Shown: in pieces, positions 8,041-50,472 of the stretch
Numbering within the stretch: position 1 is the stretch's first letter
How the letters are laid out: each line of letters begins with the position of its first letter
Origin: an uncultured Candidatus Saccharibacteria bacterium
Lineage (GTDB): Bacteria; Patescibacteriota; CALEFQ01
DNA length: 64,000 bases
Direction: 5' to 3'
Assembly: GCA_965230955.1 (NCBI GenBank)
Contig: OZ246404.1
Coordinates: 856,790 to 920,789, forward strand
Made by a program: the position numbers and the translations under genes
Notes under the pieces: generated by a model
What the model saw: the letters and a program-made list of their open reading frames with translations, nothing else
What the model was told of the DNA's origin: nothing
The model's database searches: none

Positions 8041-9852
8041 TTAGCCTCTTTTTACTTCAATTTTTTTCGTGACAGCCGGCGCCTGATTCGGAACAGTCTG
8101 AAGCGAAGAATGATTGACCAAGCCAGACAATTTCCGGAGTGATTCGGATAGCGCCAGTAATTGCTGAGCCGCGGCGGCCACTTGCTGATTGGCGGCGCTT
8201 TGCTGCTGAGTCGCTGCTGATAGCTGTTGGGCGCCGGAAGCGTTTTGCTCGGCCACCGAAGCGATGGCATCAAGCGTTTTGGCCGATTGCTGAATCGTCG
8301 CCGCTTGCTGTTGGATCGTGGTCGAAACTTCCCGAACCCGCTTAGTCACATCTTGAACGGAAGTAACCGCTCCGCCGATAGTCCGATTGACCTCGCCGAC
8401 AATATTTTTGATCTTGATTGCTGATTTTGCCGAATCATCAGCCAGTTTGCTGACCGAATCGGCCACCACGGCAAAACCTCGTCCGGCCTCGCCGGCGCGC
8501 GCCGCTTCAATCGCGGCGTTGAGAGCCAACAAATTTGTCTGATCGGAAATATTGGTGATCGTCTCGACAATCGCTTCGATACTCTCGGTACTCTGGCCAG
8601 CCAATTGCGCCAGCTGGGAAGTTTTGACGGCGCTGAGCGCGGCTTCCTGCGATGACGCCGACATCTGGCGCATCGACGCCGCCAGCTGGGTAATGCCTTT
8701 GGAAACTTCCTCGGCCTGCTTGGATTGTTGCATGGCTCCGGAAGCCACTTGCTGGGCGACGGAAGAATTCTGCTGAGAAGCGGAAGAAGTTTGCTGAGAT
8801 GAAGACGCCAGTTGTTGCGACGCCTGCCCCATCTGCTTAACGGCATCACGCAGCGGCCGGCGCACATATTCGGTAATAATCCGGGCGTACCACCAGCTGA
8901 AGAAAGCGAGGACCACCACAATGATGGCGCCAAAAAGGATTAACTGATCACGCAAAGTATATACCGGCGCCAAAATTTCCGATTGATCAACCTTGACGAT
9001 CGTGCACCAATTTTTCCCGAGCGCGGTATTGAACTCGTTTTGCCTAAAAGCGCCAATCACCGGAATGCCGCGATAATCAGTAACTGCTCCAAATGATTCT
9101 TCTCCCGCCGCACAGCGTCTGGGACCTTCGGCATCGATTTTTTTAGAGAGGATCTCCGCTTCCCCGGTATAACGCGAATCAGTCATCATGATCCGATCGG
9201 AATTAATGAGAAAAACATCGCCCGTTTTTCCCGCGGTGGCAGCCGTGTCTTTGACAATCTCATTTAGACCGACCAATTTTGCCCGCCCGACCAGAACCCG
9301 AGCCGTCGGACTTCCGGCGGCATCATGCACCGCCGTCGCCACCGCATAATTAAGCATGTCACCCACTTGGGATTTATACACATCAGTCACATACGGGCGC
9401 AACCGGCTGGTTGAATTTTTAAAGTAGTCTTTATCGCTACGATCCAAGCCGATATTTTTAGGATCGCTGGAAGCGATCGTGACACCGTTTGAATCCAGCA
9501 AGAAAAGTTCATAAAAATTATCACCCCGGTCGGCTTGCAGGTGAACCAGATGAGCCTGAGCTTCTTCGAAATCCGGCGTCCCCGGCTCCGACAAGAAAAC
9601 CTCATTGTCGGACAAGGCGGCAACTTCCAAGATATCGCCTTGGACTGATCCCACCAGCGCTTTCTCGGCAATTTCCGATAGCGCCGTCACGCGCTGAGTC
9701 GCACCATTTGTCAGAGCCGTCGAGGCTTCCTGGTAACTTAGCCAACCGAGAATAACCAGAGGCGTAATCGCCGCCACTAAAAAACCCAAAATCAGCCTGG
9801 CTGTCAGACCGAAACGGCTTTCTTTCTTTGCCTGGGAACGATCTTGATCCAT
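8041..9852 (-). CDS. Methyl-accepting chemotaxis protein with a periplasmic Cache-like sensor
   Basis: N-terminal TM segment, a ~270-aa extracytoplasmic domain and a second TM. Highly conserved MCP signalling core [31 protein letters not shown] with Q/A-rich methylation helices. Confidence 0.9.
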
Positions 9853-9914
9853 ATTTTTGTTTTATTTAGATTGATGATAATTAGAATAAAACTGACAAGG
9901 ATACCGGCACTCGA

Positions 9915-10148
9915 CTAGCGGACTAATTTTAAGCGGTTCATCATTTCCGCCACCTTTTCTTGATCGATTAATAATTTTGAAGAAATTTCTATCCATTTAA
10001 AAAGTTCCGGCAGACTCTCCGCCGACAGTGTTTCTAAAGTGACTCCCCGGCCGACATGATGGGTAACCTGACGATTGACGAATTTTTCCGCGGCCGGTCC
10101 GAGATAATCAGTCACCACCGTAATTACAGCGCTGGATAAAGAATTCAT
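9915..10148 (-). CDS. Small hypothetical protein (77 aa)
   Basis: ORF tightly packed between the HAMP-protein gene and the MCP gene on the same strand. Confidence 0.35.
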   Translation of the reverse strand: MNSLSSAVITVVTDYLGPAAEKFVNRQVTHHVGRGVTLETLSAESLPELFKWIEISSKLLIDQEKVAEMMNRLKLVR

Positions 10149-10158
10149 ATCGATAAAT

Positions 10159-10950
10159 TTATTTTTTATCTGGCTTATCTTCGGACATCAGGATTTTGAT
10201 ACTGGCCGTCATCCGGTCAAAAGAATTTGCCAGTTCTTCGAATTCTGTATTCTGATACTTGCCGATTTTGACAGAGAGATCGCCTTTGCTGATCCGGGAA
10301 GCGGCGTTCACAAATTCCTTGATCGTCCGTGCGGTGGATCGGCCGACCAGCCAGGCCGCCACTATCGCGATAACAATCGAAACAGAAATCAAGACGACCG
10401 AGGTATGAATGGTTTGCGAACTGTACCGCGCAGCTAATTCGCCGCGCACGGCCAGGAATGACCGGCTGGAATTTTCCAAATAGGCCGTCACCGTCTCGGC
10501 ATAGGCCTTTTTCCATTTGGCATATTCCGCCCCGTCAATAATTTCCAAAGCCTCGGCTGATTTCTGATCCGCTACCAATTGATGGGATCGCAGTTCCAAA
10601 TCAACCAAAACCAAATTGGCTTCGTCCTGCCGATTGAAAATTTGCCGGGTACTGTCAGTATCGGCTTGGGCGATCGCGTCTTTGATCACGGTGTCCAACT
10701 GCGTCCCGTAAGCATCATACCGTTCCTTCCACTTTTGATCGCCGGTAAAAATATAATTACGCGTTGATTGAGTCAGGACCTCATCCAACCACTGAATATC
10801 TTTGGCGCGCGATAACTGATCTTCCGCCGCGCCCAAATTACTGATATCCGTATTTATATTATTGACCAAAAACAGGGTGAATACGCCATAAACGACCATT
10901 AACAAAATCAAGAGGGCAAAACCCAGCGATACTTTACTTGAAATTTTCAT
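10159..10950 (-). CDS. HAMP-domain membrane sensor protein lacking an output domain
   Basis: TM1, a ~170-aa helical periplasmic region (4HB-like) and TM2. C-terminal HAMP (RTIKEFVNAASRISKGDLSVKIG...FEELANSFDRMTASIK). The protein ends after the HAMP. Confidence 0.6.
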   Translation of the reverse strand: MKISSKVSLGFALLILLMVVYGVFTLFLVNNINTDISNLGAAEDQLSRAKDIQWLDEVLTQSTRNYIFTGDQKWKERYDAYGTQLDTVIKDAIAQADTDSTRQIFNRQDEANLVLVDLELRSHQLVADQKSAEALEIIDGAEYAKWKKAYAETVTAYLENSSRSFLAVRGELAARYSSQTIHTSVVLISVSIVIAIVAAWLVGRSTARTIKEFVNAASRISKGDLSVKIGKYQNTEFEELANSFDRMTASIKILMSEDKPDKK

Positions 10951-11166: not shown

Positions 11167-12651
11167 CTATTTTTGCTTAGTGAAAACCTGCCCGGCCACC
11201 GAAGCGGTATCAGACGGCAAGCTGAGCAACTGACTGACTGTGACAAAGCAAAATCCTTTGGCTTGGAGCTGATCGATAATCAGCGGCACCGCTTCTTCCG
11301 TGGTTTCATGGATATCGTGCAGCAAGATTATATCACCGGTCTTGGTAGCGCTGTTGACCCGATCATCGACAATACTGGTGACGCGATCTTGCCAATCCTT
11401 GGGATCAACCGACCACATAATAATCGGCAATCTGGCCTCCTGCTTGACCGCATCATTATAAGCACCGTAAGGCGGGCGGAAAACCGGGGCATTGAGACCG
11501 GCGGCGCTTTTGATTGCGTCTTCTGTTTTCTGGATTTCGTCGCGAATCGACGCACTGTCCAAACGAGTTAACTGCTGGTGATCCCAAGTGTGGTTACCCA
11601 GTTCATGTCCCTCAGTGTAAATACGCTTCACGATATCAGGATAAGCGATGACTTGATTGCCAATCATGAAAAAAGTCGCCGCAACGCCCTTGGCTTTTAA
11701 AACATCCAGTTTAGCCGGAGTCAAAGTTTTGTGCGGACCGTCGTCGAAAGTCAACGCCACCGGATTTTGACAAGTATCCGGTATGGGCTTCGCTTTACCC
11801 GAGTCGGACGGGGTCGGTGTCGGCACGGGCGTGGCGGTCGGTTTGGGATTAGGCTTGTCAACATCCGAAGCCTCATTGGCTTGATTGGTCGCGCTATCCA
11901 AATGCTGTTTCATCAACGGCGAAAGGAGATCGTCGAGATTGCCGTACGGAATATCAATTTTCCGCGCCTGATCAGACAATTCTCCGGCCGGGAAATAAAA
12001 AGAGAGGCTATCATGGTCAAAAGTGAAACGCTGGAGCTTATCAGTCGAGAGCACATTATCGATCTTGCTTTTATCCGTCACGGCCGGATCGGCCTGCAAA
12101 CTTTGTTGCACTAACGGTATCAGCCGATTGAGATAATTTGACTGATCGGCAAACAAATCGCCCAGAACCAATTCTCGGCCGGTGTTTAAATCATAAGTCT
12201 TGGTGATGATATCATTAACGGGATTGGAATTATCAGTGAAGTATTCGTTTAGATTGAATTTAACACTAAACAGATTAGGCGCCAGACCAAAAGTGGAAAA
12301 AGTCAGGTGCATTTCATCATCCCACTCTTTGAGATTCGGCCGCTGTTCCGCTTCGGTCATGAATTCATCAATCTTTTTTTCAACAAATTTATAAATACTC
12401 TCCGAAACTTGTTTGTTGGGAGTTTTAGGATACTGGGCGGTGATCGCGTACTGATCCCAGTACTGAGTGATAGTCTCCAGCTCCACGCCCGGGAAAAGAT
12501 CACTGTTAGCGGTGGCATATTCATCGGGATTGTAGCGCGTGCTGGTCACCGGGCCGTTGTTGATACTCTCCGCCCGCCACCAGAAATAGCCGCCAATCCC
12601 CGCCGCCGCAATAATCAAGATCAAAATCAGGGCAAATGCTTTGGTGCTCAT
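11167..12651 (-). CDS. Polysaccharide deacetylase (CE4/NodB domain) with N-terminal TM anchor and extracellular domain
   Basis: C-terminal NodB motifs (TFDDGP, HTWDH, RPPYG). PTPTP linker. ~260-aa N-terminal extracytoplasmic domain of unrecognised family following a signal anchor. Confidence 0.8.
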   Translation of the reverse strand: MSTKAFALILILIIAAAGIGGYFWWRAESINNGPVTSTRYNPDEYATANSDLFPGVELETITQYWDQYAITAQYPKTPNKQVSESIYKFVEKKIDEFMTEAEQRPNLKEWDDEMHLTFSTFGLAPNLFSVKFNLNEYFTDNSNPVNDIITKTYDLNTGRELVLGDLFADQSNYLNRLIPLVQQSLQADPAVTDKSKIDNVLSTDKLQRFTFDHDSLSFYFPAGELSDQARKIDIPYGNLDDLLSPLMKQHLDSATNQANEASDVDKPNPKPTATPVPTPTPSDSGKAKPIPDTCQNPVALTFDDGPHKTLTPAKLDVLKAKGVAATFFMIGNQVIAYPDIVKRIYTEGHELGNHTWDHQQLTRLDSASIRDEIQKTEDAIKSAAGLNAPVFRPPYGAYNDAVKQEARLPIIMWSVDPKDWQDRVTSIVDDRVNSATKTGDIILLHDIHETTEEAVPLIIDQLQAKGFCFVTVSQLLSLPSDTASVAGQVFTKQK

Positions 12652-12695
12652 AAATATAATGATTAAGAATCTTTAATTATTATAGCATAAAAACT

Positions 12696-12719
12696 GGCTA
12701 GGGCATTAATGCCCTAGCC
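12696..12719 (-). terminator. Terminator after the repeat-protein gene
   Basis: GGCTAGGGCATTAATGCCCTAGCC followed by TTTTTAT on the reverse strand. Confidence 0.6.
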
Positions 12720-12857
12720 AAATTTGTGCTCCCCAAACCAAACCGGCCCGCCCCATAAAGGACAGGCCGGATTTGGCCAACAATTACTCTCCTTTGCCCA
12801 TGAGGCTACAGAGAGAACTTACCAACAGACTATATACTTAGGGATCAAAACTTTTTT

Positions 12858-13472
12858 CTATCTTCCTTGTCCAAGTCCCATTCCCATACCCATTCCTTTG
12901 CCGCCTCGTCCTTGCTGAAATCCCATTTCTTCCATAATCGCCCGCGCTTCATCGGTCTTTCCTTCTTGGCGTAATTGATGAGCCGTCACCATTTTGTTGA
13001 ACGTGTCTTCGTTTATCTTGCCGGACAAATCGCTCAAATGTTGCTGCTTTTGGGTCACGCGATTTTCCATGGCGGTCTTCCAGGCACTGAAATCATTATT
13101 CTCAATCGCGCTTTGCATCGCTTCTTTGTCAGCCGAACCCTGTCCATGACGTCCGGGCAAACCCAGCTCTTGAGCCAGAGTAGACGCTTCATCGTACTTT
13201 CCGTCTTTTCGAAGCTGCTCCAGTTGGCGTAATTGGTCAAATTTTTCTTGAGAAGTAAATTCAGTAACTTTTGCCTGAATAGTATCTTTCCAAGACTGGT
13301 AATCGTTATTCTCCAGTGCTTGGGCCGCGGCCTCCGAACCTTGGTTCATCCACCCGAAGCCGAAAGCTTTCGCTCCCTCTGGTGTACTGGCGAAAGCGGT
13401 AGCAATACCGATAGTGGCTACGGTGGCAACAGTGGCAATGGCGACGGGAATAGCTATTTTTCTGTTTAGCAT
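12858..13472 (-). CDS. Secreted helical tandem-repeat protein with Gly/Met-rich tail
   Basis: Signal peptide. Two ~75-aa internal repeats (ENNDYQSWKDTIQAKV... and ENNDFSAWKTAMENRV...). The C-terminus reads GRGGKGMGMGMGLGQGR. Confidence 0.55.
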   Translation of the reverse strand: MLNRKIAIPVAIATVATVATIGIATAFASTPEGAKAFGFGWMNQGSEAAAQALENNDYQSWKDTIQAKVTEFTSQEKFDQLRQLEQLRKDGKYDEASTLAQELGLPGRHGQGSADKEAMQSAIENNDFSAWKTAMENRVTQKQQHLSDLSGKINEDTFNKMVTAHQLRQEGKTDEARAIMEEMGFQQGRGGKGMGMGMGLGQGR

Positions 13473-13561
13473 AGTGAGGATTAATTGTTAGCCATCAGTC
13501 CAATTGGTTTATCCGACAGCTAATCGTTAAGAGTAAGGAGGCGAGATCTCGCATTTGTTCA

Positions 13562-13588
13562 TACGCCGGGGTATTTTGTTTTATTTCA
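13562..13588 (-). promoter_or_regulatory. Putative ECF-type promoter upstream of the secreted repeat-protein gene
   Basis: Reverse strand reads TGAAAT, 17 nt, then CGTA. It lies just downstream of the terminator hairpin at 13645-13666. Confidence 0.45.
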
Positions 13589-13644
13589 AAATTATCCTGC
13601 TCGCTCCGACGTCTTCGCCGGAGCAAAACGACCTGCAACCAAAA

Positions 13645-13666
13645 GGGGTGGCCTTAAGGCCACCCC
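13645..13666 (-). terminator. Rho-independent terminator after the anti-sigma gene
   Basis: GGGGTGGCCTTAAGGCCACCCC perfect hairpin followed by a T-run on the reverse strand. Confidence 0.7.
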
Positions 13667-13698
13667 TAGTAAGCCGCATCTATTTCACACGCATATTA

Positions 13699-14418
13699 TT
13701 AAAACCCCGGTACCGGCGCCAGATTAACCCGCCCCGGCCGCCAAGGACGGATGGAAGACGCTTCGAACAAATGTTCTCCGGTAATTTCACCGATGATTTT
13801 TATTTGCTCGCCCGGAAAAAGCGGAATACGGAAACGGGCTTCGGTATAAATCACCTGCCACGGCTCCCCGAGCAAATCGCGCAAACTCAACTCACTGTCG
13901 CTTTCCACGGACAGAATCTGCCCCGCCAGCAAACCCATTTCCGGTTTCTGCCAAACGTCGGCCGGATGTCCGGGCATCATCGGCCCGAGCGGCGGCCGCT
14001 GCGCCACCTGCTCGTCGATCTGTCCGCCGAAACCGGTCAAGAAAAGCGCCGTTCCGCCGACAATACTGATCACGATGCTGGTGGTAATCACGATGATCGG
14101 CCGATAACGATAACCTTCCTTCGTATGACGAAAATTGTAAATTGCCAGAAGTGAAAAAAGCACGACGACCACCACCCACAAATAAGGCAGAGATAAAACG
14201 ACATGGGTAACAGGCCCGCGGCCAAGTTGCGGATAAATATCCCAATCAATACTGGTGACGCGATCCAGCATGGCACTAAACGCTACTGCCCCGACACCGA
14301 CGGAAAAAGCAAAAGCGCCCCAAAAAAGCAGGTCGCGGCTAACGAATTGCCACTTGGGTTTGGGAGTAATATGTTTGTCCTTGATTTCATCAAGAACTTT
14401 GTGGCTTAGGTCTTCCAT
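13699..14418 (-). CDS. Putative anti-sigma factor (membrane protein)
   Basis: Its start lies 1 nt from the stop of the ECF sigma gene. ~30-aa cytoplasmic N-terminus, then TM segments and an extracytoplasmic region. Confidence 0.5.
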   Translation of the reverse strand: MEDLSHKVLDEIKDKHITPKPKWQFVSRDLLFWGAFAFSVGVGAVAFSAMLDRVTSIDWDIYPQLGRGPVTHVVLSLPYLWVVVVVLFSLLAIYNFRHTKEGYRYRPIIVITTSIVISIVGGTALFLTGFGGQIDEQVAQRPPLGPMMPGHPADVWQKPEMGLLAGQILSVESDSELSLRDLLGEPWQVIYTEARFRIPLFPGEQIKIIGEITGEHLFEASSIRPWRPGRVNLAPVPGF

Positions 14419-14419
14419 G

Positions 14420-15010
14420 TTATATATGATCTTTATTAATTAACTGCTGTAATTCCTTCTTGGCGCGATTAATCAGTGTCCCGACCGTGGCGACCGGTTT
14501 GCGCAAGATAGCGGAAATTTCTTCGTAGCTTAAGTCTTCCAAAAATCGCAACACCAATACTTCCTGATATTTATACGGCAACTTTCGCAAAGCGGCTTGG
14601 ACCACTTGGGTGGAATATTTTTGATCAAGTTCGTGCTCCAAATCCACCCCATCGGTAAATTTATTGGCGATACTTTCATCTTCCACCGCGATTACCGCCT
14701 GGGGGCGAACTTTCAGGCGCCGGTACTGGCTAATCACTTGATTGTGAGTGATGCGATAAATCCACGCGGAAAATTTCAGTTTGCTGTCAAAATCATTTAA
14801 ATTGAGATAGGCCTTGATAAAAACATCCTGCAAAACATCGGCTGTTTCTTCCTCGTCAAATCTGGAAATGCGCCGAATGTAGCGCCCCAGTTTAGCCTGG
14901 TAGCGATCCACCAAATACGCAAAAGCATCTTTGCTTTGTAGCGACAAAGACACCAACTCTTCATCCGTCTTTTGTTGGTAAATGTGGCCCATATCCATGG
15001 ATAGCATCAC
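14420..15010 (-). CDS. ECF-family RNA polymerase sigma factor
   Basis: Sigma-70 region 2 (DVFIKAYLNLNDF...WIYRITHN) and region 4 (LSYEEISAILRKPVATVGTLINRAKKEL). Confidence 0.85.
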   Translation of the reverse strand: MMLSMDMGHIYQQKTDEELVSLSLQSKDAFAYLVDRYQAKLGRYIRRISRFDEEETADVLQDVFIKAYLNLNDFDSKLKFSAWIYRITHNQVISQYRRLKVRPQAVIAVEDESIANKFTDGVDLEHELDQKYSTQVVQAALRKLPYKYQEVLVLRFLEDLSYEEISAILRKPVATVGTLINRAKKELQQLINKDHI

Positions 15011-15018
15011 CTAACTAG

Positions 15019-15044
15019 TACGCCCTATTATATCGTTTATTTCA
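15019..15044 (-). promoter_or_regulatory. Putative ECF-type promoter upstream of the sigma gene
   Basis: Reverse strand reads TGAAAT, 16 nt, then CGTA (σW/σV-like) ~50 nt upstream of the sigma start. It shares the TTGAAATAAA prefix with the promoter at 13562-13588. Confidence 0.5.
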
Positions 15045-15122
15045 AGAATTAAAAATGCAAAACTCAGAATGTAAAATTAATCGTTGTAATTCTCCATTCT
15101 TAATTTTGCATTAAAAGACTCC

Positions 15123-16343
15123 CTATTCGTACCGTAAAGCCTCAATCGGATTCAGCTTTGCCGCACGTCGCGCCGGGTAGTAACCAAAAACCAAACCGAC
15201 CAACGCCGAGACGCCGACAGCGAGAAGAATTGAACTGACCGTAATACTGGCGTTAATCGTGGAAAACTGGGAAATAAGTAAAGCCGCCACATAACCGAAA
15301 ATTATACCGAAAATTCCGCCAAAGAAAGTCAGCATAATCGATTCCATCAAAAACTGCGAGGTGATATCGCGCCGCTTGGCGCCGATCGCCTTGCGCAAAC
15401 CGATCTCCTTGGTGCGTTCGGTAACTGAAGTAAGCATCATATTCATAATCCCGATCCCGCCGACCAGCAAGGAAATTCCTCCAATCGCCCCCAGGAGAGC
15501 CGTCAGAGTACCGGTGATTGACGAAGCCATCTCAACCAAATCCGCCATGTTGCGCACCGAAAAATCGGCATTGGCCGAATCGGAAATTTTATGGCGCTGC
15601 AACAGCAGGGCGGTAATCTGCTCCTGCACCGACGTCATGCTGGACTGATCGACCGTTTTTACAATAATCGTATTGACGTATTCATCGCCGGAAAAATAAC
15701 GCTGGGCCGTACTGATCGGAATAAGCACACTGTCGTCCGAACTGCTAAACATCCCGCCGGTAGCTTCCAGCACGCCGACAATTTTAAAATTCATCTCATT
15801 GATCCGGATCGATTCGCCGACCGGATTGGCTCCAGCTCCAAATATATCCTCGGCCACCGTGGCTCCGAGCACAGCCACTTTGGCATTGCTCTTGGCCTGC
15901 TGGTCCGTAAGAAATTTCCCTTTGGTGGTCACCAGATCGCGCGCCGTGGCATAAGCGGCGTTGACTCCCATTACGCTGGCATTGACATTATTGTTTTTCG
16001 CCACTACCTGATAATTACCGGATACCGACGGCGCGACCGCCGCCAGCTTAGGCACTTGCTTTTCAATGGCCGTGGCATCTTCCATGGTCAAAGTCTTGGC
16101 TGAACCGCGGCTGGACCGCACACCCGAACCGATACTTTGTTGCGCCCCGGGCATGATGGTAATCAGATTCGCCCCGCCGGCTTCAATATTTTCGGTAATC
16201 GATTGCTGGGCGCCGGTACCGACCGACATCAATCCCACCACAGAAGCGATTCCGATCACAATTCCGAGCATTGTCAAAATCGAACGGCCCTTGTTCGCCG
16301 TCAGAGCGATATATGTTTCTTTTAGAAGGTCTGATGGTTTCAT
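15123..16343 (-). CDS. ABC transporter permease, MacB/FtsX family
   Basis: N-terminal TM, a large periplasmic domain and a C-terminal FtsX-like 3-TM bundle. Confidence 0.85.
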   Translation of the reverse strand: MKPSDLLKETYIALTANKGRSILTMLGIVIGIASVVGLMSVGTGAQQSITENIEAGGANLITIMPGAQQSIGSGVRSSRGSAKTLTMEDATAIEKQVPKLAAVAPSVSGNYQVVAKNNNVNASVMGVNAAYATARDLVTTKGKFLTDQQAKSNAKVAVLGATVAEDIFGAGANPVGESIRINEMNFKIVGVLEATGGMFSSSDDSVLIPISTAQRYFSGDEYVNTIIVKTVDQSSMTSVQEQITALLLQRHKISDSANADFSVRNMADLVEMASSITGTLTALLGAIGGISLLVGGIGIMNMMLTSVTERTKEIGLRKAIGAKRRDITSQFLMESIMLTFFGGIFGIIFGYVAALLISQFSTINASITVSSILLAVGVSALVGLVFGYYPARRAAKLNPIEALRYE

Positions 16344-16405: not shown

Positions 16406-17125
16406 TTATAAATGAAGTCCTTGTTTGATAGTTCGTTTGTGCAAATTAGGACGATCGGATGCGATCAAGCCATCTTTGATAGTAATTACCCGGTCGGTAA
16501 ATTCAGTCACTTCAACTTCATGAGTAATGACGATAATGGTACGTTTATCTTTCTTGTTTAGCTTCTCAAAAGTGCCCATCACCACTTCTCCGGATTTGCT
16601 ATCCAGGTTGCCGGTCGGCTCATCCGCAAAAATCAGGGCCGGATCGTTCACCAGGGCACGGGCAATCGCCACGCGCTGAATTTGGCCGCCGGATAATTGA
16701 TTCGATTTATGATCCCAAAGTTTTTTATCAGGCAGACCGGCATCGATCAAGGCTTTTTGCGCCCGCTCCAGTCTTTCTTTGTTTGGCAAACCTTGATAGA
16801 CAAACGGCAATATTACATTGCGCAACACCGAAGTCCGCGGCAAAAGATTGAACGACTGGAAAACAAAGCCGATACGATTCAGTCTGATATCAGCCAGTTG
16901 GTTTTCGCTGTATTCGGTCACGTTTTTACCGGCGAAAATATACTGCCCGCCCGTTGGAGTATCCAGCAAACCCAAAATATGCATCAAGGTAGATTTACCA
17001 GAACCGGACGCACCCATAATCGAGACAAACTCCCCCGCCTCAATTTTCAGGGTAACCCCGCCCAGCGCCTTGGTCTCGACTTCGCCACTGCGGTAAACTT
17101 TTGTTATATCGCGACACTCGATCAT
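16406..17125 (-). CDS. ABC transporter ATP-binding protein (MacB/LolD-type)
   Basis: Walker A GASGSGKST, signature LSGGQIQRVAIARAL and Walker B IFADEPTGNLD. Confidence 0.9.
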   Translation of the reverse strand: MIECRDITKVYRSGEVETKALGGVTLKIEAGEFVSIMGASGSGKSTLMHILGLLDTPTGGQYIFAGKNVTEYSENQLADIRLNRIGFVFQSFNLLPRTSVLRNVILPFVYQGLPNKERLERAQKALIDAGLPDKKLWDHKSNQLSGGQIQRVAIARALVNDPALIFADEPTGNLDSKSGEVVMGTFEKLNKKDKRTIIVITHEVEVTEFTDRVITIKDGLIASDRPNLHKRTIKQGLHL

Positions 17126-18648
17126 CAGCGCGGCCCTCCGCCACCGAACGAATCCGGTGGCATAAAACCGCCGCCATTACGCGAAGTAGAATTGTTCACA
17201 GAATTAGTATTCGAGCTTTTAGACGAAGTAGTAGAGACTTCCCCGATGACAACTTCATCCCCGGCTTTCAGTCCGGAAATAATTTCCGACTCGGTGTCAT
17301 TGGTCAAGCCCACTTCGACCGTCACTGGCCTCGGGACAACAGCGCCGCTATTCAAAACTTGCACGTAGCTTTGGCCGGAATCCCCGGTCTCGATGGCCGT
17401 GCTGGAAATCACCAGAACTTGGGCGGCTTCCCCCACGGTAATCTCAGCAGCCGCGGTCATGCCGTTCGCGATTCGATCATCTTGGCTGTCCAGCGTCACC
17501 GTCACGCCATAGCTGACCACGCCGGAACTGGTCGTCCCGTCCGCGTCGATTTTAGCCACCGTGCCGTCAAGCGTCAGATCCGCGATCGCGTCAAAAGTTA
17601 TTTTAGCTTTTTGCCCGATCTGGATACTGGGACGGTCAACTTCATTCACGGTGATCGCGGCTTGTTTTTGCCCGGTCACCAGCGTCGCCATGCCCTGACT
17701 GCCGGAACTGGAAGAAGAAGAACTGGCGGTGGCGGTCGTCGCTGACGACACGGCACTGACCGACTGCGTGCCGGTGGCCGAGGAAGAATTGCCGCCGCCG
17801 GAAACGCTGTCACCAACTTCCACATTGATAGCGGTAATCATGCCGCCAAACGGCGCTCGAACTTGGTAATCCTTTGCCTCAGTTTGAATTTCACTTAAAG
17901 AATTTCTCGCTTTGGCAATGGCTAATTCTTGGGAACGAATTTCTTCCGGCGTCGCTCCGGTTTTCAATTCGATCAAGGCCGCTTGTTTTTCTTTGATTGT
18001 CGCTTCGGCCAAATTGATCGCAGCCGGACCTGTTTTGTCTAGATCTTCCAAAGTTTGCTCCGCCGATGTTAGCTGAGTCGAGTATTTTTCATAAAGAGTA
18101 TCATAATTGGGATCGCTCCGGCTCAAATCATCCAAATGATCCTCGGCGGATTCCAAGTTGGTGTCGGCCGTCGCACGATCCTGTTTTTGCTTTAGTTTCA
18201 GGGCGACCAAATCATCTTCGGCTTTGGTCACCGCGTCTTCGGCTTGTAAAATTTTCGAAGTGTCCGGCGCCGCTAGCAAAGTTTCCAGTTGCAATTGCGC
18301 TTTTTCTAAATCGATCCGGGCATTCGAAACCGTGCGATTATAGTCTTCAGTATCGAGCTGGAAAAGCAAATCATTTTCCGCAACCGTTTCGTTTTCACTC
18401 ACGTAAATTTTCGACACTTCTCCCGAAGTGTCCGAGGCGACAGCAACTTGATTTATATCCTCAATCTGACCGCTGCCCGAAACAGTTTTGGTAATAGTCC
18501 CCTCTTTCACGCGCGCGGTTTGGTATTGGCTCTCCTCCGATTTTGGGGTAGTCAGAGTCACTACCAAAAAGTACCCGCCGATAATCGCCCCGGCGGCGAT
18601 CAGCGCCATCAATATTTTGTGCGTCTTTATAAATTCTAAAATCTTCAT
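17125..18648 (-). CDS. Efflux periplasmic adaptor (HlyD/MFP family) with Ser/Thr/Gly-rich C-terminal tail
   Basis: N-terminal TM, a long coiled coil and a beta-barrel region. The C-terminal ~60 aa are low complexity (SSKSSNTNSVNNSTSRNGGGFMPPDSFGGGGPR). Confidence 0.8.
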   Translation of the reverse strand: MKILEFIKTHKILMALIAAGAIIGGYFLVVTLTTPKSEESQYQTARVKEGTITKTVSGSGQIEDINQVAVASDTSGEVSKIYVSENETVAENDLLFQLDTEDYNRTVSNARIDLEKAQLQLETLLAAPDTSKILQAEDAVTKAEDDLVALKLKQKQDRATADTNLESAEDHLDDLSRSDPNYDTLYEKYSTQLTSAEQTLEDLDKTGPAAINLAEATIKEKQAALIELKTGATPEEIRSQELAIAKARNSLSEIQTEAKDYQVRAPFGGMITAINVEVGDSVSGGGNSSSATGTQSVSAVSSATTATASSSSSSSGSQGMATLVTGQKQAAITVNEVDRPSIQIGQKAKITFDAIADLTLDGTVAKIDADGTTSSGVVSYGVTVTLDSQDDRIANGMTAAAEITVGEAAQVLVISSTAIETGDSGQSYVQVLNSGAVVPRPVTVEVGLTNDTESEIISGLKAGDEVVIGEVSTTSSKSSNTNSVNNSTSRNGGGFMPPDSFGGGGPR

Positions 18649-18649
18649 A

Positions 18650-18988
18650 TTATTGATTAAATGACGGCCGACCGGCGGGACGGCTAGCCTCTATGGCCGC
18701 CCGTTCGGTGTCATCAATTTTACCATCGGCGCAATATTCTTCCATCTGGCTCATTCGACCATCATCTTGCCCGGTCTCGCCGGAACCACGCCCGGATGGC
18801 ATATCACCCTCGGCTATTCGCGCGCAAATGTCGCCGGCATCGCCACCGGGGAAAGCTTCCGCCCGCAGATCACTCGGCCGGGAAACGAGAAAATGAGAGA
18901 TGACAAATCCTATCGCGCCGGCAATTATAGCCACAGCGATAATAGTTACAATTCCTTTTTTGGTACCATTCTTGTTAGAATTTTCCAT
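18650..18988 (-). CDS. Small membrane-anchored hypothetical protein
   Basis: A single TM helix followed by an acidic, Cys-containing region. It lies inside the efflux operon between the RND and adaptor genes. Confidence 0.4.
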   Translation of the reverse strand: MENSNKNGTKKGIVTIIAVAIIAGAIGFVISHFLVSRPSDLRAEAFPGGDAGDICARIAEGDMPSGRGSGETGQDDGRMSQMEEYCADGKIDDTERAAIEASRPAGRPSFNQ

Positions 18989-19123
18989 GATTTTCGCTTA
19001 AATATGATAAAAAACCCTCTCACACTACTACGCCAGATACAGCCAATTTATTTCCGAAATAGCAGGAAATCAAGCTTACTTAAACCACCAACGAATTCGT
19101 TGGTGGTTTAGAGTTTGATACGT

Positions 19124-44395: not shown

Positions 44396-45469
44396 TTAAA
44401 GAATAGAAAACTCTTCTTCCTTTGCATCTTCCAGTATGCTTAAAAATTCATTAAACTCACTACGTTTTCTATTAATAATATTTTCTAGCAATTCGATTTT
44501 TATATCTTGCAAATCCTTTGGCATATTTGGATCCAAATCGAATCCTATTAAAAATGTATCCACCACCTTCAAGTTCGGATTGTGATTTTGAATAATGCCT
44601 TTGTATCCCAAGACCTGACCCACATGCTTAGTATTGAGCCTTATATTTGGTCTTTTTAACTCAACTAAAACGATATGCCTTTCATCCTGGAGAAATATTT
44701 TTAGAATCAAATCTGGCCTTTTGCCAAGCTCGCTGTCAATTCCTAGCTTTTGTGCCAAGAACTCACTTAGTGGTTTATTACTTTTCACAAGATCATAATT
44801 ATTATCAAGTAGCCATAAATTATTTTCTAATAGCTTATGGATTTCTTGCTCTTTCGTTTTTTTGTCCTTCAACAATATTTGCAGTAATTTAATTATTGAT
44901 ATCTTTTTCTTTACCAATTCTGCAATGGAGCTAATTTGACCTATTCTTAAATCATTTAGTAATGAAGCAAAGCCTGTTATGTCTTTTTCTTCAGCTTCAG
45001 ACAGTTTTTTCAACATAATATCTATGTTCTCAGCCTTTATTTCATATATTCTCAACCCGAGTCTATCAAGAGCTTCGAGGCTTGCGGCTGATAATTTGGC
45101 TATATTCTTATTCGCAAGAACTTTTTCAATAAAATCGGGGTCTTCTTTTAAGACCTGCTCTATTTTGATTAAAACTTCGTCTTTAACTAATTCGGTTTTT
45201 TGAATGGGCCACTCATGCTCTTTTACCGATTCTACCTCAACAACACTTTTTAAATCAGTCCAATCTTTGAAATGAAGATTAAAGAATTGCTGTTTATTTG
45301 CAGATTTACCCAACAAAATCCTCTTCATAACAACATAATTTCTATCTTTGTGTTCAGAGTCACTTAGAATAGCAAAAGTAGTCAAACCACTGGACCAATT
45401 TTTTGTTAATTTTTTAATAACTTTGAACTTATGCATAAATATTAATTTATTAAAATAATACGGCCCCAT
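44396..45469 (-). CDS. Putative PD-(D/E)xK nuclease of the DUF4263/Shedu-like type
   Basis: C-terminal region contains RPDLIL ... VLVELKRP, a D...ExK arrangement. Long helical N-terminal region. The family assignment was made by eye only. Confidence 0.4.
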   Translation of the reverse strand: MGPYYFNKLIFMHKFKVIKKLTKNWSSGLTTFAILSDSEHKDRNYVVMKRILLGKSANKQQFFNLHFKDWTDLKSVVEVESVKEHEWPIQKTELVKDEVLIKIEQVLKEDPDFIEKVLANKNIAKLSAASLEALDRLGLRIYEIKAENIDIMLKKLSEAEEKDITGFASLLNDLRIGQISSIAELVKKKISIIKLLQILLKDKKTKEQEIHKLLENNLWLLDNNYDLVKSNKPLSEFLAQKLGIDSELGKRPDLILKIFLQDERHIVLVELKRPNIRLNTKHVGQVLGYKGIIQNHNPNLKVVDTFLIGFDLDPNMPKDLQDIKIELLENIINRKRSEFNEFLSILEDAKEEEFSIL

Positions 45470-46192: not shown

Positions 46193-47494
46193 ATGGAAAA
46201 AATTAGAATTTTTATTAGTCATTCATCAAAAGACATAGATTTAGTAAGTAAGCTGGTAAGTGCTCTTCAAGAGTCGTTTGTTATACCTAGTGGAGCTATC
46301 CGATGCACCTCTTTATCTGGGTATAAATTAACACCAGGGGCACATACATCCACCACATTATTAGAAGAGCTGTTAAAAGCTGATTTGATTATAGGAGTCT
46401 TGACACGATTAAGCTCAAAGTCCAGCTGGGTTCTGTTTGAACTTGGGGCTGGGTGGGGGAAAAAAATATGGACGGTCCCTTTGCTTGGAGGGCTTGATTT
46501 CGACGAGATAGAAGGCCCACTAAAAGAATTCCACGCTATTAAGACTGATGACGAGGACGCCCTACTAGACCTTTTTGAGAAAATGCAAAATCAGCTAAAA
46601 TTGCAGCCACAGTCTGCTTCTATAAGATTGTCGGCAATACGAAAAATAGTAAATGCTTTAAAGGAGGGAGAAAAAGTTAAATCAGATGCTTATATTCCGC
46701 AGCCTGAAGAACTGGCTCATAGCCAGATGCCTGAACGTGTCGAAACACCAACGATTGTAACAGCTTACCTTAGTAAACTAACCAAAGAGACGCGCGAGGA
46801 AGAAGTTCTTCCTTTTTTTAATAGAGCTGTCTCTTATCATAAGCATGACAAAAAAATCCTGGCAAGATTTTATTTTCAACTAGCACAATTTTTTTTAAAA
46901 AAAGAAGAGCCAAGTAAAGCTCTTGAGTATTTGAATATTTCCTTAGAAAATAGTCCAAATGATATATATACCTTGAATTCCCGAGGTAAAATTTTTATAA
47001 GAATGAAGCAGTTCAAAGACGCAGAAGCAGATTTTAAGCTAGCTTTAGAAATCGACAGCGAGAGCTTGGTCAATCTAAGCTCATTAATGAGACTTTACTC
47101 GAAAAACCTACTAGAGCACATAGATAAAATACCATATCTAAGCAAGGAGCTGATAACGCTAGCTCGAAAGAAAAATGATCCCGATTCCACTTCGTTCGGT
47201 TATGCTCTCTGGGCTACTTCTCAAATTAAAGAAGACCCAAGAGCTGCTGAGATAAATTTTGACAACGCCTTAAAAGAAGCAGAGAGAATCGGTCGTAAAA
47301 TAAATAAAAATCGCAGAATTGTATCTATCTTAAGGCATCGAATAAAACTGTATTCCACTTTAAAGAGGGATGATGAGGCTAAACAAGATTTTATCCAGGC
47401 GTGGAATCTTTGCCTAGAATTTCCTGAGGACAGAGAGATCAAAAATTCAGTGGAAGCGCTAAAAGTTGAATCCGGGCATCTGATGGGCAATTAA
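46193..47494 (+). CDS. TIR-domain protein with C-terminal TPR repeats
   Basis: N-terminal IFISHSSKD start. SSWVLFELG (W with Glu at +4, the predicted NADase catalytic site). The C-terminal ~250 aa are TPR-like helical repeats. It is the only plus-strand gene in the array. Confidence 0.7.
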   Translation: MEKIRIFISHSSKDIDLVSKLVSALQESFVIPSGAIRCTSLSGYKLTPGAHTSTTLLEELLKADLIIGVLTRLSSKSSWVLFELGAGWGKKIWTVPLLGGLDFDEIEGPLKEFHAIKTDDEDALLDLFEKMQNQLKLQPQSASIRLSAIRKIVNALKEGEKVKSDAYIPQPEELAHSQMPERVETPTIVTAYLSKLTKETREEEVLPFFNRAVSYHKHDKKILARFYFQLAQFFLKKEEPSKALEYLNISLENSPNDIYTLNSRGKIFIRMKQFKDAEADFKLALEIDSESLVNLSSLMRLYSKNLLEHIDKIPYLSKELITLARKKNDPDSTSFGYALWATSQIKEDPRAAEINFDNALKEAERIGRKINKNRRIVSILRHRIKLYSTLKRDDEAKQDFIQAWNLCLEFPEDREIKNSVEALKVESGHLMGN

Positions 47495-48313: not shown

Positions 48314-49399
48314 TTACCCCATAATTCCAACCAGCTTCTTAAACACATATACACTCGGCTTTTGCCCAGAACCTTTTTGAATTCTCTGAAGCACTCCACC
48401 CTTTAGAAGTCTCTCGATAATTCGAATCGAGCTCATCTTAGGAATCCCTGATTTTTTCACAAATTGGGCTGTTGTAAAATACGGGAAACAAAACAAGAAA
48501 TCCAGTGTCTTGATGGCAAACTGCGAGTGAGTAAGACTTTCAATCCGAATTTTTTTTGCATCATAAAGCTCGTGAATGGCTTTGGCCTTTTTGATGTTAA
48601 CCTTTGCCTGTTCAATCACAGCGGTCAGAAAATACTCAATCCAGCCCTCCCAATCCTGGTTTTGCGAAACCGATCTGAGTTTGCGGTAATAGGTCGCTCG
48701 ATCAGCTTCCAAATATTGACTCAAATAAAACGCTGGACTCAGAAGCACTTTTTTATCGTAGAGGAAAAGAGGAATAAGAATTCTTCCCAACCTGCCGTTG
48801 CCATCATTGAACGGATGGATCATTTCAAATTGTGCATGAATGATCGCCAATTGGACCATGAAGTCTTTTTCCGATGAATGGATATACTTTTCAAGGTTGG
48901 ACAGGCAATCCACTATTTTCTCCGGAGATGGAGGTACAAAAGAAGCATTTTCAATTTTAGAGCCAATGGGACCAATCCAATTCTGGGTGGATCTGAAATT
49001 GCCAGGATTTTTATTCTGTCCCCTGACCCCACTTAATAGAATTTGGTGAGTTCCTCGGATGAGACGCAAGCTTAGGGGAAGCTTTTTCATTTCACTAACG
49101 GCGAATGTCAGAGCTTTTCGATAATTAATCACCTCTTGGATATCCCCAAACTTCTCTGTTTTCATCTTGGGATCAGCTTCATATTCGAGCACTTCCTCAA
49201 GTGAAGCTTGGGTTCCTTCGATTTTAGATGAAAGAACTGCTTCTTGGGTTGTGAGGGGTGATAGCAGTACAGCAGGATTCGGAATACTTTGCAGAAGGCC
49301 ATCAAATCTGGCTACTTCCGCATTGGCTTTACCTATCAGATGCACAAACTTGTTCCAGTCAAGCTTCACAGGAAGCTTTTCTGGCTCAAAAGGCTTCAT
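48314..49399 (-). CDS. Fic family protein (class II: inhibitory helix plus C-terminal wHTH)
   Basis: Fic motif HPFNDGNGRLGR. N-terminal SSKIEG matches the [ST]xxxE[GN] inhibitory motif. Confidence 0.85.
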   Translation of the reverse strand: MKPFEPEKLPVKLDWNKFVHLIGKANAEVARFDGLLQSIPNPAVLLSPLTTQEAVLSSKIEGTQASLEEVLEYEADPKMKTEKFGDIQEVINYRKALTFAVSEMKKLPLSLRLIRGTHQILLSGVRGQNKNPGNFRSTQNWIGPIGSKIENASFVPPSPEKIVDCLSNLEKYIHSSEKDFMVQLAIIHAQFEMIHPFNDGNGRLGRILIPLFLYDKKVLLSPAFYLSQYLEADRATYYRKLRSVSQNQDWEGWIEYFLTAVIEQAKVNIKKAKAIHELYDAKKIRIESLTHSQFAIKTLDFLFCFPYFTTAQFVKKSGIPKMSSIRIIERLLKGGVLQRIQKGSGQKPSVYVFKKLVGIMG

Positions 49400-50396: not shown

Positions 50397-50472
50397 TGGC
50401 TCCCCGGGCTGGACTCGAACCAGCGACATCCTCGTTAACAGCGAGGCGCTCTACCGACTGAGCTACCGGGGA
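50397..50472 (-). tRNA. tRNA-Asn (GTT)
   Basis: Cloverleaf read from the reverse strand. Acceptor TCCCCGG/CCGGGGA. D-arm GCTC-AGTCGGTA-GAGC. Anticodon loop CTGTTAA. T-arm GCTGG-TTCGAGT-CCAGC. Encoded CCA. Confidence 0.85.

Follow-up and report, generated by a model that had tools for sequence, protein, structure and literature searches.

A Patescibacteria-typical ECF sigma factor module with a conserved extended promoter motif and a neighbouring PdaC-type deacetylase predicted to lie outside it

Which genes are controlled by an extracytoplasmic function (ECF) sigma factor in a member of the Patescibacteria, and does a polysaccharide deacetylase encoded three genes downstream belong to them? 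This question is raised by a locus in a 64,000-nucleotide stretch of contig OZ246404.1 (positions 856,790 to 920,789 of GenBank assembly GCA_965230955.1, from an uncultured Candidatus Saccharibacteria bacterium), the whole of which is referred to here as the window, and in which all of the relevant genes lie on the minus strand. They encode, in order, the sigma factor, a 239-residue protein with three transmembrane (TM) helices, a secreted repeat protein and a deacetylase of the CE4 family. An earlier interpretation made from the letters alone, referred to as the sequence-only reading, had noticed two similar promoter-like strings and had compared the locus with the sigV-rsiV-pdaV lysozyme-resistance modules of Firmicutes, with the deacetylase as the output. 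Patescibacteria, or candidate phyla radiation (CPR) bacteria, have very small genomes in which regulators are scarce; most of them have never been cultured, and their gene control is hardly understood. We consider it likely that the locus contains a Patescibacteria-typical ECF sigma signaling module whose outputs are the repeat protein and, probably, an efflux pump, with the deacetylase not included.

Both of the promoter strings quoted in the sequence-only reading were confirmed on the minus strand: TTGAAATAAACGATATAATAGGGCGTA, at 15045-15019, precedes the sigma open reading frame (ORF), and TTGAAATAAAACAAAATACCCCGGCGTA, at 13589-13562, is 90 nt upstream of the ATG of the repeat-protein gene at 13472. 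When both strands of the window were searched, TGAAAT-N16/17-CGTA gave exactly two matches, 15019-15044(-) and 13562-13588(-), versus a chance expectation of 0.34, and at least two matches were obtained in 5 of 100 shuffles. The broader pattern TGAAAY-N15-18-CGTM was rejected as it occurs in the window at chance level (three matches versus 2.4 expected), and it is the specific extended motif, rather than this broader pattern, that matters. The window statistic alone is weak, and the decisive support is the conservation of the motif in other genomes.

The contig to which the window belongs is 1.14 Mb long. The comparison set consisted of 76 species-representative genomes that have a homologue of the 239-residue protein, and their related loci (given L numbers where needed) were analyzed by ORF calling and hidden Markov model searches. 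The labels of these genomes are almost all Patescibacteria/CPR and cover Parcubacteria, Saccharibacteria, Gracilibacteria, Peregrinibacteria, Dojkabacteria/WS6, Kerfeldbacteria, Moraniibacteria and Falkowbacteria. Metagenome-assembled genomes L013, L024, L027 and others are titled “uncultured Gammaproteobacteria bacterium,” “Nitrospirota,” “Saprospiraceae,” or “Bathyarchaeia,” and these are probably mislabelled or contaminated bins. An ECF sigma gene is located directly upstream of the gene for the 239-residue protein, on the same strand, in 69 of the 72 loci with room for it, and in 61 of these 72 the junction between the two genes is overlapping or no longer than 25 nt. In 42 of 67 loci the membrane-protein gene is directly followed by a repeat-protein homologue, at a median gap of 80 nt.

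Upstream of the sigma and repeat-protein genes in distant genomes there is a TGAAA(G/T)AAA element followed by 13-14 nt and (G)CGTA, often then nTA. The strict motif was found upstream of 22 of 70 sigma genes and 19 of 44 repeat-protein homologues, rising to 35 of 70 and 33 of 44, respectively, with the relaxed motif, and the density of the strict motif is 2.15 per kb in these upstream zones versus 0.035 per kb elsewhere (the remainder of the 1.34 Mb searched, both strands), an enrichment of about 60-fold. Several of the matches elsewhere represent a conserved coding stretch within the sigma gene, and many others occur immediately after the membrane-protein gene in loci that have other cargo there, such as Fe/Mn superoxide dismutase, ATP-binding cassette (ABC)/MacB or HlyD-like genes, lipoproteins, and secreted helical proteins with Gly/Met-rich tails. 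Hexamer enrichment performed without the pattern of the sequence-only reading ranked TGCGTA, GCGTAT and TGAAAG first or close to first in both sets (p down to 6e-21), and the spacer from hexamer to CGTA was 16-17 nt in 62 of 66 instances. This combination of a conserved motif, position and spacing is characteristic of an ECF promoter that serves autoregulation and a small regulon. The sigma promoter of the window, with an AAC-like −35 element, a CGT-containing −10 element and a spacing of 16-17 nt, has the predicted ECF autoregulatory form. The proposal that both motifs are ECF-type promoters and belong to one regulon, the first for autoregulation and the second for a target gene, is upheld by their conservation in related genomes, and the noted resemblance to the SigW-type consensus, which is TGAAAC-N16-CGTA, is also borne out.

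Several further features of these regions were observed. In L011, L012 and L018 (Parcubacteria, Moraniibacteria), a Fe/Mn superoxide-dismutase-like gene replaces the repeat protein about 20 nt after the membrane-protein gene, which hints that the regulon varies and may include oxidative-stress defence. TATAAT is present in 28 of 70 regions upstream of sigma genes (L008-L083) versus 6.1 expected, often just downstream of, or within, the ECF promoter, and in the window it is found at 15028-15033, inside the spacer of the sigma-gene ECF promoter; this enrichment suggests tandem housekeeping and ECF promoters that would allow basal expression. Just past the −10 element of the repeat-protein promoter is a palindrome, GCGAGATCTCGC (13540-13551, minus strand), which is nearly conserved in L008, the closest relative. 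A structured 5′ untranslated region of the repeat-protein mRNA was considered and rejected as its fold is no better than those of shuffles (z = −1.9).

A position weight matrix (PWM) built from other genomes only was used to rank sites in the window, and the top three are all on the minus strand, intergenic and just upstream of start codons. Two are the promoters described above and the third is before a MacAB-like efflux operon, so the sequence-only reading had correctly named two promoters and had overlooked a candidate third. This third site is 41 nt upstream of the ATG at 18988 of a gene for a 112-residue protein, past the terminator-like hairpin of a gene for a transporter of the resistance-nodulation-division (RND) type, and this hairpin would separate the efflux genes as a new transcription unit. 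The pattern GAAATAAA-N11-14-GGCGTA, which was derived post hoc, matches exactly these three sites in the window and none in 100 shuffles. MacAB-type genes are located on the strand of the module and within 5 kb in 15-22 other loci, where high-scoring sites directly precede these genes or the lipoprotein gene before them, and this placement in other genomes is independent support for the predicted third site. The efflux genes constitute a MacB-type tripartite ABC set of membrane-fusion protein, ATPase, and permease with MacB_PCD and FtsX domains. The 112-residue first gene product has no Pfam match, and thus no YknW-type (Yip1) accessory protein was recognized, and a homologue is absent from the related loci searched. 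The MacAB-like operon is probably a second output of the regulon. A hairpin scan detected no terminator between the MacB gene and the sigma promoter, and read-through of the efflux operon into the sigma operon is therefore possible.

The secreted repeat protein is predicted to be a conserved output of the regulon across the phylum. It is a predicted all-helical protein that contains two internal repeats (34% identity, E = 9e-15) of a unit of about 60 residues, NNDYxxWK...GKxDEAxxIxxELGL, and has a Gly/Met-rich tail. Most of its homologues have a single copy of the unit. A profile search of 1.84 billion sequences gave 2483 cluster representatives (50% identity) at E ≤ 1e-3, with one to four copies of the unit per member. 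Pfam scans of 16 and 43 members of this family gave no consistent family, and a fold assignment was abandoned as a Foldseek search of the PDB gave nothing below E = 1.6. Many of the single-unit homologues (L003 6044-6526, L006 6780-7193 and others) end in FVDA(D/N)GDGACDN, which looks like a Cys-/Asp-rich metal or calcium site; the repeat protein of the window lacks this ending and terminates in GMGMGMGLGQGR.

The public gene call places the start of the sigma factor at ATG 14998, giving 192 residues, with AGGTGA 7 nt upstream, and this is likely the true start. In Pfam the protein matches Sigma70_r2 (1.1e-13) and Sigma70_r4_2 (6e-16), with no match for region 3, and it scores 97.8 bits with the sigma70-ECF model TIGR02937 (cut-off 42.9). 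The best NCBIfam model is that of SigW (NF007223, 113.2 bits, E = 1.3e-32) and the best PDB match is also SigW (5WUQ, E = 4.5e-24). The equivalog cut-offs for SigW are not reached (113.2 vs. 209 bits for NF007223 and 100.7 vs. 243.1 bits for TIGR02948), and the protein, although predicted to work like SigW, is no SigW equivalog. CPR phyla are not mentioned in the main text of the ECF classification (Casas-Pastor, 2021), and a full-text literature search found no paper on the ECF sigma factors of CPR bacteria. The sigma factor may already be in a numbered ECF group.

What, then, is the role of the 239-residue membrane protein, whose gene starts after a single nucleotide beyond the sigma stop codon? 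Its AlphaFold2 (AF2) model, with a predicted local distance difference test (pLDDT) score of 84, shows an N-terminal helix (residues 2-14), then three TM helices and, at residues 163-225, a barrel of five strands that matches OB folds, such as those of IF1, eIF1A, CusF and RPA (E ∼2e-3, target TM-scores 0.5-0.68). In an alignment of 74 sequences, the best-conserved parts are the N-terminal 25 residues (VLxKIKxxxIKPxPKWxF) and the loop between TM2 and TM3 (NFRHTKEGYRY), and positive residues are concentrated in these same two segments. This charge distribution fits an N-in, C-out topology in which the conserved segments are cytoplasmic and the OB fold is directed outward. A class I anti-sigma domain (four helices, about 80 residues) is not found, as only the helix at 2-14 precedes TM1, and neither is the RsiW-type zinc motif HxxxCxxC, as there is no zf-HC2 match and no Cys in the N-terminal 30 residues. 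From synteny and topology, the protein is most likely a non-canonical anti-sigma factor or sensor.

Alternatively, the 239-residue protein may not be an anti-sigma factor but a co-expressed envelope effector or transporter-like protein, with the sigma factor controlled in some other way, for example by transcription alone. The lack of a detectable anti-sigma domain or family match and the presence of only about 25 cytoplasmic N-terminal residues for binding would agree with this. However, the gene is almost always paired closely with that of the sigma factor, conservation is highest in the two segments predicted to be cytoplasmic, an N-in, C-out protein with an external sensor-like domain has the usual layout of an anti-sigma factor, and there are precedents, such as CnrY, for short anti-sigma domains of class II. 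Hence we judge an effector role to be unlikely, although it retains some weight. The idea of a metal sensor, prompted by the CusF-like OB fold and the Gly/Met-rich tails of the outputs, is kept as speculation only. The OB domain has no conserved Met, His or Cys, its invariant residues being Trp, Gly, Asp and Phe, and in the repeat family only 3 of 16 members gave a Metal_resist match, at a weak score (best E = 0.012).

The deacetylase has a different relationship to the module. Its translation contains the five CE4 motifs (TFDDG, HTWDH, RPPYG, DPKDW and LLHD), it matches Polysacc_deac_1 of Pfam (1.3e-40), and the best PDB match of its catalytic domain is PdaC of B. subtilis (6H8L, E = 4.8e-44). 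An N-terminal TM helix is followed by a DUF3298-containing domain, a Pro/Thr-rich linker and the CE4 domain, and the combination of TM helix, DUF3298 and CE4 is what we take to be the architecture of B. subtilis PdaC. The N-terminal domain had been regarded as an uncharacterized addition, and a profile check against DUF3298 and DUF4163 had been proposed. When this was run, DUF3298 was recognized in the isolated domain (25.6 bits vs. a cut-off of 24.1; 22.6 bits in the full protein), and the second profile, PF13739 (PdaC/DUF4163), gave only a weak match (E = 0.088) at the expected position. A model of the Rv3036c type also matches the domain (E = 5.1e-9). The N-terminal domain is therefore probably a known PdaC-type DUF3298 module rather than an uncharacterized one, and the protein would have a familiar architecture, not a novel fusion.

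The order of sigma factor, membrane protein, repeat protein and deacetylase genes was correctly described previously, but these do not form a single operon because terminator-like hairpins follow both the gene for the 239-residue protein and the repeat-protein gene. Two hairpins stand in tandem in the gap between the repeat-protein and deacetylase genes, each of 12 pairs and one of them followed by TTTTT. The deacetylase has its own TGcTATAAT element, likely a housekeeping promoter as judged from its sequence and position, and no ECF motif precedes it among the PWM sites of the window. Moreover, a CE4 deacetylase homologue is linked to the module in only one of the 76 loci, that of L008, the closest relative (78% identity). 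All of this contradicts the assignment of the deacetylase as the output, and it is predicted to be a separately transcribed neighbour outside the conserved ECF module.

Two explanations would nevertheless connect the deacetylase with the sigma factor. The first is partial ECF control, in which transcripts begun at the repeat-protein promoter would extend into the deacetylase gene and add to those from its own promoter. This would fit with the shared strand, the gap of 206 nt and the retention of the adjacency in L008. We regard this as improbable given the two consecutive hairpins that would have to be traversed and the hairpin with a T-tract that is also found in the corresponding gap of L008. 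The second is that the locus is a SigV/RsiV-like lysozyme-response module in which the deacetylase, transcribed together with the upstream genes or under the same sigma factor, is the output. The deacetylase does adjoin the module on the same strand, in L008 also, its N-terminal domain holds DUF3298, a type of domain with which RsiV binds lysozyme (PMC5014341), and in C. difficile pdaV is within the csfV operon (10.1101/2020.07.17.209676). However, there are the two strong terminator hairpins, the separate extended −10 element, the lack of an ECF motif at the deacetylase and the linkage in a single other species, and some DUF4163/DUF3298 proteins do not bind lysozyme (PMC5014341). In addition, the partner of the sigma factor has three TM helices and lacks DUF4163 and DUF3298, and the sigma factor itself is nearest to SigW. 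A lysozyme-response module is hence very improbable, and the analogy with sigV-rsiV-pdaV is rejected because of the domains of the partner, which has an OB fold and three TM helices, the terminators, and the lack of the motif and of synteny. That two AT-rich intergenic regions share the motif by coincidence, as the weak window statistic might be taken to imply, is in effect refuted by the 60-fold enrichment at the same two positions in dozens of distant genomes and by the unseeded k-mer test.

Based on the motif, its conservation, synteny, domain content and the terminator hairpins, we infer how anti-sigma activity, signal, release and transcription could be connected in this module. The sigma factor would be co-produced with the three-TM protein and held inactive by the conserved cytoplasmic N-terminal helix and loop of the latter, whose outward OB-fold domain would probably sense an envelope signal. 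Once freed, the sigma factor would steer RNA polymerase to promoters of the type TGAAA(T/G)AAA-N13-14-(G)CGTA, of which three are predicted in the window. The one before the sigma operon would provide positive autoregulation, the one before the monocistronic repeat-protein gene would give the output that is conserved throughout the phylum, and the third would serve the operon for the small protein and the HlyD-like, ABC and MacB-type proteins, from which transcription may read through into the sigma operon.

Several points weigh against this model. Only half of the sigma genes are preceded by even the relaxed pattern, a shortfall that miscalled start codons may partly explain, and the counts of PWM sites before sigma and repeat-protein genes are partly circular as these regions served to train the PWM. 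In the third site the first −35 position is C in place of T, and the PWM score of 20.2 is barely above the best of 20 shuffles (19.9). The 239-residue protein has no recognizable anti-sigma domain, no Pfam or NCBIfam match and no PDB sequence match, and its cytoplasmic part is very short. The AF2 model of the repeat protein is helical and of low confidence (pLDDT 59), and the function of this protein is a guess, a periplasmic-chaperone-like or CpxP-like feedback role being speculation. Finally, the deacetylase adjoins the module in the closest relative too, and because this adjacency is kept the two could have a lineage-specific functional link.

The features of the locus are collected in Table 1.

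Table 1. Genes, candidate promoters and terminator-like hairpins of the ECF locus and its surroundings, in window coordinates.
Feature	Position	Strand	Basis
AcrB-type RND transporter, 1070 aa	19124-22336	-	directly upstream of MacAB-like operon
Terminator-like hairpin 3′ of RND gene	19082-19109	-	-23.2 kcal/mol, z = -5.3
Third ECF-type promoter candidate	19024-19058	-	CGGAAATAAA-N13-GGCGTAGTA, PWM 20.2, third in window
Small membrane-anchored protein, 112 aa, heads efflux operon	18650-18988	-	ORF
HlyD/MacA-like membrane-fusion protein	17125-18648	-	Pfam Biotin_lipoyl_2 and HlyD_3
ABC transporter ATPase	16406-17125	-	Pfam ABC_tran 4.8e-31
MacB-type permease	15123-16343	-	Pfam MacB_PCD 1.4e-51, FtsX 2.5e-24
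Sigma-operon ECF promoter (predicted, autoregulatory)	15014-15047	-	TTGAAATAAA-N11-GGCGTA, PWM 21.2
ECF (group 4) sigma factor	14420-15010	-	Sigma70_r2 and Sigma70_r4_2
Three-TM membrane protein, 239 aa, candidate anti-sigma factor/sensor	13699-14418	-	synteny, alignment, AF2 model
Intrinsic-terminator-like hairpin and T-tract, after 239-aa gene	13644-13667	-	-31.1 kcal/mol, z = -4.5
Repeat-protein ECF promoter (predicted)	13557-13591	-	TTGAAATAAA-N14-GGCGTA, PWM 23.0, best in window
Secreted repeat protein with signal peptide, 204 aa	12858-13472	-	internal repeat, synteny
Two tandem terminator-like hairpins, repeat-protein gene/deacetylase gap	12770-12743 and 12721-12694	-	combined -56.6 kcal/mol, z = -6.6
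TGcTATAAT extended -10, 28 nt before deacetylase start codon	12679-12687	-	read from sequence
CE4 deacetylase, PdaC-type, 494 aa	11167-12651	-	Pfam, PDB match, CE4 motifs

Other parts of the window contain features apart from the module. Downstream of the deacetylase is a chemotaxis cluster (8041-10950, minus strand) that encodes a HAMP protein, a 77-residue ORF, a receptor with dCache and MCP domains, and CheW. Genomes of about 1.1 Mb seldom have such a cluster, which is also recorded in locus L001, beyond position 8369. On the other side of the efflux operon, the AcrB-type RND transporter is notable because RND pumps usually operate across an outer membrane and the host is expected to lack one. 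The GC content falls to 0.34-0.39 between 40000 and 48000, versus about 0.48 elsewhere. Genes of this low-GC stretch encode a protein with a Shedu SduA_C domain (44396-45469, minus strand), a TIR and TPR protein on the opposite strand (46193-47494, plus strand) and a Fic protein (48314-49399, minus strand), and a tRNA gene is located nearby (50400-50472); the stretch looks like a small defence or mobile island. An Rfam scan of the window gave tRNAs only.

The analysis yields a phylum-wide regulon defined by sequence, comprising a sigma factor, an unusually built candidate sensor and a clear promoter consensus from which targets in any CPR genome could be predicted. There are two types of output, an unannotated family of secreted helical proteins and MacB-type efflux pumps, and for the former this provides a first functional handle, as presumably envelope-stress-induced proteins, on some 2500 protein clusters to which no function has been assigned. 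As the deacetylase is not an output, the locus is unsuitable for inferring lysozyme sensing. More tentatively, and with considerable doubt about the proposal as a whole, this could be a signature ECF system of the Patescibacteria that is undescribed as a group, with an extended TGAAAGAAA...GCGTAnTA promoter, the unannotated repeat-protein family as its main output (about 2500 clusters), and a new class of anti-sigma factor that would consist of a short helix and a cytoplasmic loop, with no canonical domain, and an OB-fold sensor. The repeat protein may in that case act as a feedback ligand of the OB-fold sensor, by analogy with CpxP acting on CpxA.

How does the locus compare with known systems? 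The deacetylase shares its five catalytic motifs and, by prediction, its domain order with PdaC, differing in the weak detectability of its PdaC/DUF4163 half and in its patescibacterial host. With CnrH-CnrY the module would share a very short cytoplasmic sigma-binding segment, as proposed here, and the lack of a class I signature. There is no sequence similarity to CnrY, which has a single TM helix and acts together with the periplasmic sensor CnrX, whereas the protein described here has three TM helices and a covalently attached OB fold.

SigV-RsiV modules, which are organized as sigV-rsiV-oatA in B. subtilis and pdaV-prsA2-csfV-rsiV in C. difficile, resemble the locus in having an ECF sigma factor with an adjacent membrane partner, autoregulation, a peptidoglycan-modifying enzyme nearby and a DUF3298 domain in the neighbourhood. 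RsiV has a single TM helix with DUF4163 and DUF3298, which together are its lysozyme-binding module, and not all such domains bind lysozyme (PMC5014341). SigV systems have a peptidoglycan-modifying gene in the sigma operon, as with pdaV in the csfV operon of C. difficile (10.1101/2020.07.17.209676). In contrast, DUF3298 is here on the deacetylase and not on the anti-sigma candidate, and the deacetylase is a separate unit that lacks the motif and is not conserved with the module.

The closest working analogue, as far as the analogy extends, is SigW of B. subtilis and not SigV. The promoters of the module, TGAAAT/G-N16-17-CGTA, are near the SigW consensus and both systems are autoregulated, that of the module by prediction. 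The SigW regulon includes the YknWXYZ pump. This pump consists of a small protein, a membrane-fusion protein, an ABC protein and a MacB-like permease (PMC4887032), and the membrane-fusion/ABC/MacB-type pump of the module, which is likewise led by a small gene, recalls yknWXYZ. The two systems differ in that RsiW is a single-TM zinc anti-sigma factor, whereas the partner here has three TM helices and an OB fold and lacks HxxxCxxC. In addition, the −35 element of the module is extended (GAAAGAAA/GAAATAAA) and nTA follows the −10 element, the principal conserved target is a secreted helical repeat protein that lacks annotation, and the hosts are Patescibacteria. The locus thus holds an ECF regulon of a known kind in which the anti-sigma candidate and the output protein carry no annotation.

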